A DNA stretch of 64,000 bases, taken from IMG/VR virus record IMGVR_UViG_3300033555_000001, positions 246,729-310,728 of that record; one strand, given 5' to 3'. Shown here piece by piece: positions 21,825-42,638 of the stretch (its first letter is position 1; each line of letters opens with the position of its first letter). A program made the translations under genes and the position numbers. Below the pieces are notes generated by a model. The model saw nothing but the letters and a program-made list of their open reading frames with translations. It ran no database searches and had not been told where the DNA came from. This DNA comes from a virus (Duplodnaviria > Caudoviricetes).

Positions 21825-22991
21825 ATGGCAACAAGTAAAAAAGACGTCACCGTCTATATCGGAAGATTTTCTCCGTTTCACCGGGGTCATGCTGAAGTTT
21901 TAAAGCGTGCGATGCTGACCAGCAAATTAGTAATTGTGCTTGTTGGATCAACAGGTCAAGCGCGGAATCTAAAAAACCCATTTACGTACGAAGAGCGCGT
22001 AAGAGTGATCACGGCCACTGCCTTTGATTTTGTTGTAGCCGGTATTGTAGAGCACGGAAACCCTTCGTCAGTTCTTGGAGAGCTGGTAATTTTACCGCTG
22101 CCGGACCAGCCGTACAATGATGGGTTGTGGATTAGGAGCGTGCAGGAAAAAGTAAAACACGCAATAGATGCCTTTGCGGTTAAAACAGGACAGCTTCTTA
22201 CTGACGTATATCTCACCGGAAGCGACCGCGATGAGAGCACGTGGTATCTGAGCGCTTTTCCACAGTACAAGCAAGATTTGGTAGATGAACACCGGAATAC
22301 TAACGTGCTCTTAAGCGCCACAAGTGTGCGCGAAGTTCTGTTCAGCGGTGCTGCAAGTGTTACGGACGGTGTAAAGTTAGGTGTTAAAGTTCCTGACAGC
22401 ACGCGTAATTTTTTGCTAGAATTTATGAAGACGCCAGAGTGTAAGTTACTGCAACAAGAGCGGGCACACCTGGATGCCTACAAAAAATCCTGGAGTAGCG
22501 CTCCTTATCCCCCAACGTTTGTGACAACTGACGCAATCGTCGTGCAGTCCGGACACGTGCTCGTGGTAGAGCGTGGTGCATTTCCAGGTAAAGGTCTGTG
22601 GGCGCTGCCTGGTGGATTCTTAAATCAAAATGAACGGCTGGCCGATGGCTGCATTCGAGAGCTAATTGAGGAAACTGGAATCAAAGTTCCTGAAGCGCTG
22701 TTAAGAGCAGCAGTTAAAACCGCACCAAAGGAAATTTTTGACAATCCTGGTCGCTCGCTGCGGGGTCGTACAATTACTACTGCGTTTTTAATCAGGCTAG
22801 ACGATACTAAACCGCTGCCAAAAGTAAAAGGGCAGAACGCCCCTCTCAGCGAAACTGGCAATGAAGCGGTAGTAGAAACCGCAAAGGCATTTTGGCTGCC
22901 GCTGAGTACTGCACTTGACAAAACTGACATGTGGTTTGAAGATCATCACGCACTGCTCTCTTGGGCCGTGTCACAACTTAACTCAAGGTAA
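21825..22991 (+). CDS. nadM: bifunctional NMN adenylyltransferase / Nudix hydrolase (NadM-Nudix, NatV-like)
   Basis: GRFSPFHRGH (HxGH), SAT motif, Nudix box GGF...E.....C.RELIEETG, FEDH. Confidence 0.93.
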   Translation: MATSKKDVTVYIGRFSPFHRGHAEVLKRAMLTSKLVIVLVGSTGQARNLKNPFTYEERVRVITATAFDFVVAGIVEHGNPSSVLGELVILPLPDQPYNDGLWIRSVQEKVKHAIDAFAVKTGQLLTDVYLTGSDRDESTWYLSAFPQYKQDLVDEHRNTNVLLSATSVREVLFSGAASVTDGVKLGVKVPDSTRNFLLEFMKTPECKLLQQERAHLDAYKKSWSSAPYPPTFVTTDAIVVQSGHVLVVERGAFPGKGLWALPGGFLNQNERLADGCIRELIEETGIKVPEALLRAAVKTAPKEIFDNPGRSLRGRTITTAFLIRLDDTKPLPKVKGQNAPLSETGNEAVVETAKAFWLPLSTALDKTDMWFEDHHALLSWAVSQLNSR

Positions 22992-23181
22992 ATCATGACG
23001 CATCAAACAGAAACATATCTTTCATTTGCCGAAATAACTTCATTAATTAGGAAGTCGGTAAAAACCCCAGTCGGAACTGTTGCCACCTATGTAGAGATTC
23101 ATGTCGGTGATGGTACTTTATTTGGCATCAAAACCGTAACTGGTGCTACTGTTATATTTGAACCACTTGCAAAAGCCGCTG

Positions 23182-23823
23182 ATGAATAATACAGCTGAAT
23201 CCAATCCGCACGTTAACTTTATTGCTAAGTCTGAGTACTCAAACAGTCGGGTAAACAGTTCTAGCGATAATTTATATTTTTGCAAGTACTCAGTCATTAA
23301 TCCGACTGAGCTCTTTACACCTGGAGAATTTCCAGTTCCTGCGATTTTTGCACACTCACTTGCGCGCATTGGGACACCGTTTGATATTGGGCTCAGTATC
23401 ATAGCACCATTATGTGGAGGCCACAAGGTGACATCGGGCTCTGAGGCACGTCACCGAAATAAAACAGCTTTTGCCCTGACAGTTGCGCAGTGCAAAAAGA
23501 TGAGTGTTAAAGAATTGGCTCTGGCCCTTAGAAATATCCGATTTAATTATGTGACAACTCGCGCAGTAGAGCTTGGTTATACAGAAGAACTATACGCTGC
23601 GCTATTTCCAGTTGAACAAGAAGAATTTGATTACGGTTTAAGTCTTATCAACAATCTAAACTTTGCTGCGCAGGCGCAAGCAATTTTTGATACTGTGCGG
23701 TCAATTTCTACTGCGCCGGTAATCAGCCCAACAGATTCGGTCGTGATAGAAGTAAACGAAAGTGGGCTGCAGTCCGCGCAAATCAGCGGTCGCGAGTGGA
23801 CCTCTATCTATTTGGCCCGTTGA
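23182..23823 (+). CDS. hypothetical protein
   Basis: Long ORF between the two NAD genes. Confidence 0.6.
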   Translation: MNNTAESNPHVNFIAKSEYSNSRVNSSSDNLYFCKYSVINPTELFTPGEFPVPAIFAHSLARIGTPFDIGLSIIAPLCGGHKVTSGSEARHRNKTAFALTVAQCKKMSVKELALALRNIRFNYVTTRAVELGYTEELYAALFPVEQEEFDYGLSLINNLNFAAQAQAIFDTVRSISTAPVISPTDSVVIEVNESGLQSAQISGREWTSIYLAR

Positions 23824-23920
23824 AATGATCAGGTTATAATTAAAATACCAAGTGATCACAAATTACTGTGACCCCGGCGAGTGACAGACACAAACCGAAA
23901 CTAATGATAAGGAGTTTATC

Positions 23921-25450
23921 ATGAATAAAGTTACTGCACCAGTTTTACACGTTCTAGAAAAATCTAAAAAAGCTCGCGTGTTATATACCGCACGCCAACA
24001 GCCCAGATTTAATTTGGTGCTTGCGGTTGACAGCTATAAACTATCTCACGCATTTGCCTATCCTAAAAATATAGTTGGCATGGCCTCGTACATTGAAGCA
24101 CGTACTGGCGGCCGAGATATTATGATTCCCTTTGGTCGCCAAGCAGTGCTGCAGCGGTATCTGTCAGTACCAATTACGCAGGGTGATATTAACGATGCTG
24201 CTGATTTTGCAAGTACGCACGGTGAACCGTTTGCCCGCCGAGTCTGGGAACATATTTTACGTGAATACAACGGCTTTATGCCACTCACAATTCGTGGAGT
24301 TCCAGAGGGAACTCCCGTCCGCAGTGGTCACGCTATTACCACCATCATGTGCACTGATGCGTATGTTGCCGAAAATATTTTCTGGCTGTGTTCGTACTTT
24401 GAAACGCTGCTGTTACGCGGTGAATGGTACCCAACCACAATTGCCACTGACGACTACAAGATCAAGCGCCTGATTAAAAGCTACTATGTAAAAACTGGCG
24501 CTGACATGGCCATGCTAAATTTTGCGCTGCACGACTTTGGGGCACGTGGGGTTACTTGCCATGAGCAGGCGCAGATTGGCGGTGCTGCGCATCTGGTATC
24601 GTTTAAGGGCAGTGATACAATAGAGGGTATACAGTACGCCAATTACTGGTACGGCGCAGATATGGCAGCATTCAGTGTACCTGCAACTGAGCACAGCGTG
24701 CAGTGCGCGTTTGGCGCCGGTCAATTTGCAGCCGGCAGTGCTGACGCTGACACAGAGTACATGCGGCACGTGCTTAAAAACTTGGCTCACAAGGGTGGTA
24801 TTGTTTCTATGGTGATTGATGGATTTGATGTCTATCGCGCCACGGATATTTTGTGCGGGCGGCTTGTTGCAGAGATTAAAGCCACTGGAGCAAAAATAGT
24901 CTTTCGCCCAGACAGCGGCGATATGTATAAAATCATTCCGTATATTTTAGCAAAGCAAGAGGCTGCGTTTGGCGTAACAGTAAATGCGCACGGCTTTAAG
25001 AAAATTAATACGGTTGGGTTACTGCAAGGTGATGGTATTGACCATGAGGCCGTTGAAAAATTACTTGATCTGGTGACGGGGCTTGGGTACTCCGCCGATA
25101 ATATCGTGTTTGGTTCGGGTGGTGCACTGCTGCAAAAACGCAATCGTGATACTTACAAATTCGCGCAAAAAGCCTCTGCCGTACTTGTTGCAGTACCAGC
25201 CTCTCAAACAGAAGTTACTTACGAGTGGGTTGGTATTGCCAAAGATCCAATTACTGATCCAGGCAAGAAATCAAAAGAGGGGGTATTGACTCTGGCGCGG
25301 TCCCTTATTACTGGTGAGCACATGACAGTACGAATAGATACCGGGTCGCTGAGTACTGAATTTGAGGATGTGATGGTAGATGTTTATGATCACGGTAAAT
25401 TTTTTAACCTGACAACACTAGATGAGGTGCGTGCTCGCTGCGCGCAATAA
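23921..25450 (+). CDS. nadV: nicotinamide phosphoribosyltransferase
   Basis: DSYKLSH, LHDFGARG, SVPATEHS, RPDSG, FGSGG.LLQ, KDPITDPGKKSK.G. Confidence 0.95.
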   Translation: MNKVTAPVLHVLEKSKKARVLYTARQQPRFNLVLAVDSYKLSHAFAYPKNIVGMASYIEARTGGRDIMIPFGRQAVLQRYLSVPITQGDINDAADFASTHGEPFARRVWEHILREYNGFMPLTIRGVPEGTPVRSGHAITTIMCTDAYVAENIFWLCSYFETLLLRGEWYPTTIATDDYKIKRLIKSYYVKTGADMAMLNFALHDFGARGVTCHEQAQIGGAAHLVSFKGSDTIEGIQYANYWYGADMAAFSVPATEHSVQCAFGAGQFAAGSADADTEYMRHVLKNLAHKGGIVSMVIDGFDVYRATDILCGRLVAEIKATGAKIVFRPDSGDMYKIIPYILAKQEAAFGVTVNAHGFKKINTVGLLQGDGIDHEAVEKLLDLVTGLGYSADNIVFGSGGALLQKRNRDTYKFAQKASAVLVAVPASQTEVTYEWVGIAKDPITDPGKKSKEGVLTLARSLITGEHMTVRIDTGSLSTEFEDVMVDVYDHGKFFNLTTLDEVRARCAQ

Positions 25451-27261: not shown

Positions 27262-27678
27262 TTGGGTACAGCAATGTTAAAGCAATGGGCTCGCCACAGT
27301 GGTAACGGTTATGAGTGCTCGTCCCATGGCGACCATAGATTTTCAGCTCTTCACGCTAAATTGTCAGATGGGCGCAGCATTGAAGAAGCATATCAGTTAG
27401 ACGTCAAGGGCTATCGAGCAGTTTCTGATAGTTGGCGGACTGGAAAAGGCAAGCCTTCGCTCTCATCATTAACACGACAAGAACAGTGGATTAGCTATTT
27501 GGGCCTATGGGAACAGTGGGTTCAAGAAAATCCTGAGCTGCTAGCTGATTTAATGTTAAAATCAGAAGGTAAAGTGCTTACTGATAAGTTTGCTACTTCA
27601 GATATCAATCAGGCCAAGGCTCTTGCCACTATTATTTCTGAGAGGCTGAGCTTAAAAGCACTGCCATTTACCTTTTAG
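27262..27678 (+). CDS. conserved phage protein, possibly NADAR-like
   Basis: YECSS.GD.RFSAL.AKL.DGRSIEEAYQLDVKGY...LW.QW...NP. The NADAR link is inference. Confidence 0.6.
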   Translation: MGTAMLKQWARHSGNGYECSSHGDHRFSALHAKLSDGRSIEEAYQLDVKGYRAVSDSWRTGKGKPSLSSLTRQEQWISYLGLWEQWVQENPELLADLMLKSEGKVLTDKFATSDINQAKALATIISERLSLKALPFTF

Positions 27679-27699
27679 GAAAGAGCATAACCGTACAGG

Positions 27700-28110
27700 G
27701 TAATAACGAGTTTCATCATTGGAATAGTAAAACAGCGTAAACTCAGTTTTTGAAAAGTTGAACAGGACGGGAGAGTCGGAGCTCCCCACCTCCACCAAAA
27801 GCGCTCTAGTAAGTCTGCAACGCGATCAGACTTTGAAGGCGGGAAACTTGGACTAAGCGTGACGCCTCTAACAATTCTCTTAAGGGATTGATTTTGGGAG
27901 AGCCAAGTACTAGAGTGTTTTTGATGGGGGTGAATTGGAATCGACTGGCAAAATAGTAAACTACAGAGCGCTCGAGAGATGACCGACGTAATCGGCATAA
28001 AAACCTTAAATGCAAATGATAGCGCATTTTACGGAGACACACGCCTAGCAGCGTGATGCCCGCGAGGCTAACCACCTTGTCACCGAACGGTAGGTAAGAA
28101 GTTTTACCGC
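27700..28110 (+). ncRNA. ssrA: circularly permuted (two-piece) tmRNA
   Basis: Acceptor piece ends CACCTCC-A-CCA at 27797, upstream of the coding piece starting GGGGGTGAATTGGAATCGAC at 27926. Acceptor stem has G3.U70. Tag frame 28012-28056 reads ANDSAFYGDTRLAA*. The outer ends are approximate. Confidence 0.88.
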
Positions 28111-28113
28111 TTC

Positions 28114-28140
28114 AAAGGGCCTTAGGGTCCTTTGTTGTTT
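28114..28140 (+). terminator. intrinsic terminator after the tmRNA coding piece
   Basis: AAAGGGCC-TTA-GGGTCCTTT followed by a T-rich tract. Confidence 0.65.
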
Positions 28141-28209
28141 TCTGGTCCCAGAAATACAACCCTCCGCGCACCCGTAAATATCTTACTATAAATTAATACT
28201 GGAGAAATC

Positions 28210-29771: not shown

Positions 29772-29847
29772 GCCGATGTAGCTGAGCGGTTACAGCAGAG
29801 GATTCTAAATCCTAAGATCCCCGGTTCGAATCCGGGCATCGGCACCA
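29772..29847 (+). tRNA. amber suppressor tRNA (anticodon CUA)
   Basis: Canonical 76-nt cloverleaf; anticodon arm GAGGA-TT-CTA-AA-TCCTA; T loop TTCGAAT; A73 and CCA. Confidence 0.92.
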
Positions 29848-36327: not shown

Positions 36328-36413
36328 GTTGTTTTAGCTTAAGAAGAGCGTCGGGTCTGCCAATATTATTGGTGGACCGGGAGGAGTAGGTTCAAGTCCT
36401 ACAGACAGCACCA
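36328..36413 (+). tRNA. tRNA-like RNA with an extended anticodon arm
   Basis: Acceptor stem, D arm, canonical T arm and CCA are present; about 12 extra nt follow CTGCCA. Confidence 0.5.
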
Positions 36414-37044: not shown

Positions 37045-37121
37045 AGCGGGTTAGAGAAGAAGTCATCTCGCCGGCCTCATAAGCCGGAAATCACGTGGAG
37101 CATTTCCCGTACCCGCTACCA
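37045..37121 (+). tRNA. tRNA-Met(CAU)
   Basis: CCGGC-CTCATAA-GCCGG; degenerate T arm; CCA. Confidence 0.75.
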
Positions 37122-42236: not shown

Positions 42237-42638
42237 ATGAACCACGATCTCTCAATCAGCACGCACAAGCAAGTCATTGTTATGCGTAAAGACCTCAACA
42301 TGAGGAAAGGCAAAATGTGCGCGCAAGCGGCCCACGCCTCAATGGCCGCTATTCTTGACCTGGGATCTTATTCTGGATCCCAATTCGTGCTTGATCTAGA
42401 CGGCCGCACAGCCCCTTGGCTAGCCGGCAATTTCAAAAAAGTGTGTGTTTCAGTCGACTCCGAAGAGGAGCTCATTGCGCTGTACAACCTAGCACGCTCT
42501 CAAAATATCATTTGCGCTCTGATCAAAGACGCTGGTCTGACCGAGTTTGGCGGCGTTCCCACCTTTACCTGCATTGCAGTTGGCCCAGACACAGAGGATC
42601 GTGTTAACGCTATTACTGGCAATCTCAAACTACTGTAA
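42237..42638 (+). CDS. pth2: peptidyl-tRNA hydrolase, Pth2 type
   Basis: KQVIV.R.DL.M.KGK..AQ.AHA...KKV...DAG.TEF...T.TC.A.GP. Confidence 0.93.
   Translation: MNHDLSISTHKQVIVMRKDLNMRKGKMCAQAAHASMAAILDLGSYSGSQFVLDLDGRTAPWLAGNFKKVCVSVDSEEELIALYNLARSQNIICALIKDAGLTEFGGVPTFTCIAVGPDTEDRVNAITGNLKLL

Follow-up and report, generated by a model that had tools for sequence, protein, structure and literature searches.

A probable circularly permuted tmRNA gene with an eight-nucleotide T loop in an uncultured jumbo myovirus

The last 64 kb of a 310,728-bp virus record (IMG/VR record IMGVR_UViG_3300033555_000001, estimated to be 87% complete) form the stretch of DNA analysed here, which we call the window, and its plus strand carries what is very probably a genuine, selectively maintained, circularly permuted transfer-messenger RNA (tmRNA; ssrA) gene of an uncultured jumbo myovirus related to Ralstonia phage RsoM2USA and Xanthomonas phage XacN1. 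That the locus is a real gene we regard as nearly certain; that its product is a functional two-piece tmRNA relying on the SmpB protein of the host is likely, at a somewhat lower level of confidence.

The Rfam model for permuted tmRNAs (RF04321, tmRNA_permuted) matches positions 27734-28056 of the plus strand over its entire length (model positions 1-213 of 213) at 104.9 bits, against a gathering score of 47 bits and with an E-value of 2e-19 over the 64-kb window. This score is far beyond chance, and the match was reproduced when the whole 310,728-bp record was searched. The record also harbors a gp23-type (T4-type) major capsid gene (303.6 bits), so that the proposal of a first-pass annotation, a phage-encoded circularly permuted tmRNA, is borne out on both counts; the Rfam two-piece models and ARAGORN had been named there as checks, and the former gave this match well above threshold. 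Among the models for bacterial two-piece tmRNAs, the alphaproteobacterial one (RF01849) scores 55.4 bits against a threshold of 50 and covers only model positions 40-241 of 355, and a match to the betaproteobacterial one (RF01850; threshold 84 bits) is not listed for the window, lower-scoring matches from the same clan not being displayed. Two open reading frames (ORFs) on the minus strand, 27675-27998 and 27806-28075, overlap the high-scoring structured RNA and were rejected as spurious. The parts of the gene are as follows.

27727..27733, plus strand: possible 5' extension of the acceptor piece, GTAAAAC, complementary to 28101-28107 (read from the sequence).
27734..27768, plus strand: acceptor-piece strands of P2 (AGCGU ... 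CAG), with the GAC linker that precedes the T arm (from the alignment to RF04321, model positions 1-35).
27769..27786, plus strand: T arm, with a 5-bp stem GGGAG/CUCCC and an 8-nt loop AGUCGGAG (reading, Rfam and script parse).
27787..27797, plus strand: acceptor 3' strand CACCUCC (27787-27793), discriminator A (27794) and encoded CCA (27795-27797) (reading, Rfam and parse).
27798..27925, plus strand: 128-nt stem-closed spacer ending UGAU before G1 (from its fold; presumed excised).
27926..27944, plus strand: start of the coding piece, with the acceptor 5' strand GGGGGUG (27926-27932; G3 pairs with U70) and the D-loop analogue AAUUGGAAUCGA (reading, Rfam and parse).
27945..27973, plus strand: coding-piece strands of P2 (CUG ... 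GCGCU) (Rfam alignment; middle register ambiguous).
27978..27998, plus strand: conserved PK1-region motif GAUGACCGACGUAAUCGGCAU, with a hairpin CCGA/UCGG (shared with viral and metagenome loci).
28012..28056, plus strand: tag frame, with resume codon GCA, peptide ANDSAFYGDTRLAA and stop codon TGA (reading, Rfam and ARAGORN at -ps80).
28057..28112, plus strand: 3' region of the coding piece, including GUUUUAC at 28101-28107 (reading; poorly conserved relative to contig L024, described below).
28113..28144, plus strand: intrinsic terminator, with a U tract after a 9-bp stem (the precursor likely ends here).

All parts lie on one strand in permuted order, the T arm, the acceptor 3' strand and CCA (to 27797) coming before G1 (27926) and the tag (28012-28056). 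A script parse of the locus yields the same parts as direct reading, in agreement with the first-pass annotation, which had placed the 3' half, ending at 27797, upstream of the 5' half, starting at 27926, and had recognized a 7-bp acceptor stem with G3.U70. The alanine identity set is complete, comprising the 7-bp stem GGGGGUG/CACCUCC with G3.U70, discriminator A73 and CCA. In the T arm, GGGAG (27769-27773) pairs with CTCCC (27782-27786) and encloses the loop AGTCGGAG (27774-27781, 8 nt in DNA letters), which Infernal aligns with one inserted base. The D-loop-like stretch that directly follows the acceptor 5' strand reads AATTGGAATCGA in DNA letters, and a 20-mer at the start of the coding piece recurs in nine viral contigs holding one-piece or permuted tmRNAs.

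The tag comprises 14 codons, from GCA at 28012 to GCG ending at 28053, followed by TGA (28054-28056), and the resume context is CUUAAAU-GCA. Its peptide, ANDSAFYGDTRLAA, begins with AND and ends, as first read, with LAA, the ClpX recognition element. The TGA is taken as a stop because genetic code 11 fits the genome, with 93% ORF cover; recoding of stop codons was rejected, as reading TAG or TGA as sense adds less than 1% to that cover.

The pairings that would hold the two pieces together beyond the acceptor stem are less settled. The P2 register initially proposed, AAACT/AGTTT with GAG/CTC, stands as a possible alternative, but the Rfam alignment supports CAG/CUG with AGCGU/GCGCU; in that alignment the outer AGCGU/GCGCU and inner CAG/CUG strands pair and the middle is mismatched, other registers exist, and a minimum-free-energy cofold favours yet another, neither that of Rfam nor the one first proposed. 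Of the two motifs suggested to join the pieces, GTTTTAC was correctly placed at 28101-28107, but GTAAAAC occupies 27727-27733 and not 27726-27732. About 0.1 perfect 7-mer complements of this kind are expected by chance between two short flanks (an estimate), so the GTAAAAC/GTTTTAC helix is not significant alone; at locus L017 a comparable helix, with another sequence, occupies this place.

Selection on the gene is indicated by comparison with the closest relative found, L024 (Ga0208117_101657), a 4.9-kb metagenome contig with phage-family genes. The acceptor piece, the segment from G1 to the resume codon (including the PK1 region) and the tag are 75-81% identical between the two (74-78% for the functional parts in a second comparison), and the spacer and the region after the stop codon are near random (42-57% after free gapping). 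Seven of the eight substitutions in the tag (ANDALYGDTRLAA in L024) are synonymous third-position changes and the remaining one exchanges F for L; a single codon indel leaves the L024 tag one codon shorter. The stems differ in a compensatory manner, G5-C68 being replaced by A5-U68 in L024 and the innermost P2 strands CAG/CUG by CUG/CAG. Twelve related tmRNAs were parsed, nine of them permuted and the other three one-piece; every one has G3.U70, and across the family the acceptor and T stems covary freely. Judged from these alignments, synonymous tag changes together with compensatory stem changes are the pattern expected of a translated tag and a folded tRNA-like domain.

This pattern bears on whether the RNA might act mainly as a decoy or inhibitor, its tRNA-like domain soaking up host SmpB, EF-Tu or alanyl-tRNA synthetase (AlaRS) and thereby shutting down or redirecting host trans-translation. 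Such a role would suit a phage without SmpB of its own, and the 8-nt T loop could weaken normal function. The first-pass annotation had seen no SmpB gene in the window, and this extends to the whole 310,728-bp record and to four relatives, two of them complete genomes, in none of which PF01668 has a match, the control search having recovered SmpB in 10 bacterial genomes. There is also a precedent in mycobacteriophage DS6A, whose tmRNA consists of the tRNA-like domain only and is reported to inhibit tmRNA strongly, perhaps by SmpB titration (PMC4131195, PMC11915505). A decoy needs no tag frame, however, yet the tag here is intact, with seven synonymous changes against one non-synonymous change relative to L024, and conservation throughout the phage family extends to the PK1-region motif and the context of the resume codon. 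The substitution pattern seen against L024 is not, on this comparison, what a decoy or a decaying copy would produce, and we consider a decoy unlikely. Because no SmpB gene has a match in the record, the phage that makes a functional tmRNA must rely on SmpB of the host; what it carries is the tmRNA and not the whole tmRNA-SmpB system.

Permuted tmRNA genes were found in 12 further distinct phage or metagenome sequences, at 16 loci altogether. The isolates closest in their capsid protein are Ralstonia phage RsoM2USA (54% identity) and Xanthomonas phages XacN1 (50%) and Xoo-sp13 (47%); Stenotrophomonas phages CM1 and RAS14 are also among the nearest, and the Asteriusvirus group comes next at 41%. 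RF04321 matches RsoM2USA at 96.7 bits, XacN1 at 123.2 bits (two copies) and Xoo-sp13 at 65.7 bits, and has no match in RAS14 or PBECO4; Stenotrophomonas phage DLP_6 carries a permuted tmRNA at 136.8 bits. The GenBank records of XacN1, RsoM2USA, Xoo-sp13 and DLP_6 have no tmRNA feature at these loci, which are the following.

AP018399.1, 37231-37530 and 356026-356325: permuted tmRNAs of XacN1 (L049/L052), above the Rfam threshold.
MG752970.1, 331728-331923: permuted tmRNA of RsoM2USA (L050), above the Rfam threshold.
MN047793.1, 39030-39373: permuted tmRNA of Xoo-sp13 (L051), above the Rfam threshold.
KU682439.2, 102838-103059: permuted tmRNA of DLP_6 (L016), above the Rfam threshold.

A further relative is a complete 342,591-bp phage with terminal repeats (L012/G002), in which a homologue (55% identity) of the phrog_9995 gene found upstream of the tmRNA here is followed by a permuted tmRNA and then by tRNAs. 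As a marker of synteny among isolates, phrog_9995 proved uninformative, being widespread and present also in phiKZ-like phages. The L012 tmRNA scores 105.8 bits with RF04321 and 113.9 bits with the betaproteobacterial model (beta_tmRNA, RF01850), which is also passed by L034 (124.5 bits) and DLP_6 (103.7 bits). Upstream of the resume codon, a motif GATGACCGAC-N-TAATCGGCAT is common to DLP_6, L015/L017, L024 and seven viral contigs (L034-L040, three distinct sequences). A degenerate-pattern scan of viral contigs gave no further members with a YGDTRLAA tag, and the exact 33-mer of T arm plus acceptor was found in none of them. A different kind of match was seen in the viral contig L003 (234-300), where 67 nt match the one-piece model RF00023 at 53.7 bits with the acceptor 5' strand running straight into the T arm; this looks like a tRNA-like domain only, resembling the DS6A mini-tmRNA.

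The spacers of these relatives measure 26-156 nt (L012 and DLP_6, 26-31 nt) and are not conserved in sequence, but every one is closed by a helix extending from just after CCA to about four bases (typically UGAU) before G1. In the gene studied here a helix of about 20 bp closes the 128-nt spacer, whose fold has -39 kcal/mol (z -2.26). A small gene or a known RNA inside it was considered and rejected, as it has no ORF longer than about 10 codons and no Rfam match at E<=1.

The T loop of tmRNA is typically 7 nt long (UUCRANN), and the loop found here has 8 nt. The exact 19-mer of the T arm recurs in eight other tmRNA loci, seven from metagenomes (two with the same sequence) and one on a 144-kb viral contig, and the identity of the T arm across them led us to reject an assembly error as its source. 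Because it is kept letter for letter in these eight loci, the loop is a trait of a lineage. Both gene orders are represented: L021, L023 and L025 match the one-piece model RF00023, L033 reads as one-piece, and L024 is permuted. Over 23 bases at the 5' end and 39 bases at the 3' end L021 is identical to our gene, whereas the two are unrelated in body and tag. No tmRNA with this T arm occurs in 50,697 deposited phage genomes, the best match there being the permuted tmRNA of Maribacter phage Panino, with a 7-nt loop. Other departures occur in permuted viral tmRNAs, namely a different 8-nt loop, UAUCAUAU, in L034 (3273-3530, and copies), and a 6-nt loop, GUGGUG, in L040 (5304-5580), with a D loop lacking GG; T-loop length thus seems unusually free in phage tmRNAs. 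The consensus loop of the Rfam alpha model, GGCgGUA, likewise lacks the U54/A58 pair, so that departure from UUCRANN is not unprecedented in two-piece tmRNAs.

The same observations address the possibility that the gene is a passenger, neutral or in decay, that has lost its function since its capture from another phage or a bacterium, with the aberrant T loop and the swollen spacer as products of decay. The non-canonical loop, a spacer of 128 nt compared with 26-31 nt in L012 and DLP_6, the mismatches in P2 and the marginal score with the alpha_tmRNA model (55.4 bits against 50) could all be read in this way. The T arm, however, is letter-identical in eight other tmRNA loci whose bodies have diverged, which argues for constraint, the stems have changed in a compensatory and the tag in a synonymous manner, and long stem-closed spacers are also present in XacN1, Xoo-sp13, L017 and L024. 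Decay is, in our judgment, slightly less probable even than a decoy, and a maintained tmRNA gene is the preferred interpretation.

A bacterial donor was sought by exact-match scans, which diverged bacterial relatives would escape, in the genomes of 185,579 bacterial and archaeal species (one genome each). A 23-mer containing the PK1-region motif had no match, and the T-arm 19-mer occurred at two sites only, both G+C-rich and without tmRNA context; on these results a bacterial donor was rejected. They also weigh on the idea that the locus is the remnant of an integration site, a fragment of the ssrA gene of a host, retained as attP or taken up by imprecise excision. Transfer-messenger RNA genes are indeed frequent integration sites and phages often carry fragments of them (PMC9004378), but here both halves of the gene and the tag are complete, no tyrosine integrase was found in the record, the capsid gene is of T4 type and the nearest relatives are large phages, and the scans disclosed no plausible donor host. 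Such a remnant is very improbable.

Taken further, the distribution of the T arm raises the possibility, tentative and on balance doubtful, that GGGAG-AGUCGGAG-CUCCC marks a phage-restricted tRNA-like domain, found letter-identical on otherwise unrelated bodies and in both gene orders. If so, the domain would be a module exchanged between phages, or the permutation would have arisen within the phage lineage, and the altered loop may be an adaptation, for example in the way host T-loop-modifying enzymes, nucleases, SmpB or EF-Tu recognize the RNA; counts of phage tmRNAs made with ARAGORN would then be systematically too low for such genes. In the open-access literature we found no prior description of a conserved T arm with an 8-nt loop apparently common to one-piece and two-piece phage tmRNAs. 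Unusually long tags appear to be present in the one-piece genes that have this T arm (L021 7654-8049, L023 4229-4655 and L025 614-1013): the L025 frame has 29 codons and ends in TAA, and the L021 and L023 frames end in V and not in AA. L021 also encodes, 3.8 kb downstream of its tmRNA, a 633-amino-acid homologue of an 'ATP-dependent protease' (phrog_4871).

The first-pass annotation had suspected that the 8-nt loop might hide the gene from standard tools, and this proved to be so. In its default mode ARAGORN reports 11 tRNAs in the window and no tmRNA; it remains silent about the locus at -ps95, -ps90 and -ps85, and only at -ps80 does it return a 'Permuted' tmRNA with the same tag, alongside a false call on the opposite strand. 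Default recovery by T-loop length was none of six for 8-nt loops, none of one for 6-nt loops and three of five for 7-nt loops. Since the default thus missed every tmRNA tested with a loop of other than 7 nt, surveys that relied on ARAGORN (PMC7162821, PMC9004378) probably undercount phage tmRNAs.

The features of the locus suggest a pathway for making and using the RNA. Processing of bacterial two-piece tmRNAs was reportedly established by Keiler and colleagues in 2000. By analogy with their maturation (summarised in PMC11915505), a single precursor, possibly produced by read-through from the upstream gene, would end at the terminator at 28113-28144, and the acceptor stem would form across the stem-closed spacer hairpin. 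Host RNase P would then cleave 5' of G27926 and the spacer would be trimmed to the encoded CCA27797, giving two pieces, the acceptor piece about 64-71 nt long and the coding piece about 219 nt, joined by the acceptor stem and P2. Host AlaRS would charge the RNA by way of G3.U70 and A73, host SmpB and EF-Tu would bring it to ribosomes stalled on broken mRNAs, and translation would resume at GCA 28012 and add ANDSAFYGDTRLAA, whose LAA end would mark the product for ClpXP-type proteolysis in the host. The likely benefit to the phage would be to keep ribosomes free during message breakdown in infection, alongside its own tRNAs and a Pth2-type hydrolase; this benefit is conjecture, though it fits the tRNA set, the hydrolase and published suggestions (PMC9004378, PMC7162821).

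Several points weigh against a functional two-piece tmRNA. The pairing of P2 is imperfect in the Rfam alignment, which marks several non-standard pairs, and the 8-nt T loop lacks the canonical U54...A58 arrangement, which could affect charging, binding of EF-Tu or SmpB, or the docking of the T loop with the D loop. The interval from the upstream gene to the RNA yielded no sigma-70-like promoter. None of the sequencing runs listed as holding the stretch is an RNA run, which leaves transcription, the two mature pieces and their ends as predictions; the only run holding the full stretch is an ice metagenome, which is probably the source sample. Our literature search found no experimental work on phage tmRNA function, and the compatibility of the RNA with SmpB and AlaRS of its host is an assumption.

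In the record, 25 tRNA genes are arranged in two clusters, and the tmRNA heads a tRNA-rich block. Upstream, at 21825-25450, lies a pair of genes for nicotinamide adenine dinucleotide (NAD) salvage, encoding a nicotinamide mononucleotide adenylyltransferase/Nudix fusion (cytidylyltransferase-like and NadR-like; phrog_395) and NAMPT (phrog_448). The phrog_9995 gene sits between this pair and the tmRNA, and downstream of the tmRNA come small ORFs and then the tRNA block. A tRNA with a CUA anticodon, 1.7 kb downstream at 29772-29847, is well formed (Rfam tRNA, 70.3 bits) and labelled 'Pyl' by ARAGORN; it looks like an amber suppressor and not a sign of genome-wide TAG recoding. Two more tRNA-like genes detected by Rfam, at 36328-36410 (37.4 bits) and 37045-37118 (48.6 bits), escape the ARAGORN list, and the block therefore holds more than 11 genes. 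At its far end is a gene for a PTH2-family peptidyl-tRNA hydrolase (window 42267-42635, record 288995-289363; 109.9 bits), which together with the tmRNA frames a module for keeping translation running. Outside the window, at 90156-90638 of the record, there is a ClpP-family protease domain (PF00574, 100.5 bits), which is of interest because the tag ends in the ClpX degron LAA; the protein could be a head-maturation protease or a true ClpP.

With regard to known systems, the first-pass annotation had taken phage tmRNAs to be one-piece, and its high interest, which rested on that premise, is not upheld. The premise has been superseded: in 18,146 phage genomes, Buchholz et al. 2022 (PMC9004378) found 133 unique tmRNAs, of which 53 are two-piece, so that permuted phage tmRNAs were already documented and the claim of novelty falls, as that annotation had itself allowed. 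Listings of phage tmRNAs go back to at least 2014 (PMC4131195), their presence in huge phages has been reported (PMC7162821), a 2025 tmRNA database holds 79 unique bacteriophage sequences (PMC11915505), and the permuted tmRNA of Maribacter phage Panino is annotated in GenBank. The two-piece phage tmRNA as such is thus already known, and the gene described here adds one example to a documented class. Phage Melnitz has a two-piece tmRNA, and two-piece forms occur in 17 of 47 Melnitz-like contigs (PMC9004378). Like our gene, that of Melnitz is a permuted ssrA in a large T4-like lytic phage with its own tRNAs, presumed to maintain or exploit host translation, but it is of alpha type, marine and followed by a glutamine riboswitch, whereas an Rfam search of our locus found no such riboswitch. 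The genes in PMC9004378 were detected with ARAGORN, whose default misses the gene here.

Closer in kind are XacN1, RsoM2USA and Xoo-sp13, which by capsid (47-54% identity) belong to the same jumbo-phage group and, as does DLP_6, have RF04321 matches; DLP_6 also has the PK1-region motif in common with our gene. In contrast to it, all four have canonical 7-nt T loops and different tags (for example, ANANTFDYALAA in XacN1), and their genes are only about 55-67% identical to it by an approximate parse. We found no prior description of the permuted tmRNA genes of the XacN1/RsoM2USA group in open-access text, and they are unannotated in the three GenBank records checked. This group has cultured, tractable members and offers an experimental handle on phage tmRNA function, and the 8-nt T loop provides a natural test case for the T-loop geometry that tmRNA function tolerates. 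Nearest of all is L024, whose T arm, 8-nt loop included, is identical; it also has the PK1-region motif, the tag ANDALYGDTRLAA and a stem-closed spacer of 111 nt, and differs in one compensatory acceptor pair, in having one tag codon fewer and in an unrelated spacer and 3' region.

Bacterial two-piece tmRNAs are said to occur in alphaproteobacteria (Caulobacter, from the work of Keiler and colleagues in 2000; RF01849), betaproteobacteria (Sharkady and Williams in 2004; RF01850) and cyanobacteria (RF01851). They have the same permutation and tRNA-like-domain architecture as the gene here, with a tag that begins with AND and ends with LAA. Our gene is unlike the models of these bacterial forms in that only the general permuted model was passed comfortably, the alpha model being marginal and a beta match not listed; its spacer, at 128 nt, far exceeds the 27 nt of the Rfam model consensus, its T loop has 8 nt, and it is accompanied by no SmpB gene. 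The one-piece phage tmRNAs of the mycobacteriophage Bxz1 group and of Bacillus phage G (Hudson et al. 2014, PMC4131195) also belong to large phages with many tRNAs, but they keep the standard gene order, whereas in the gene described here the halves are permuted.

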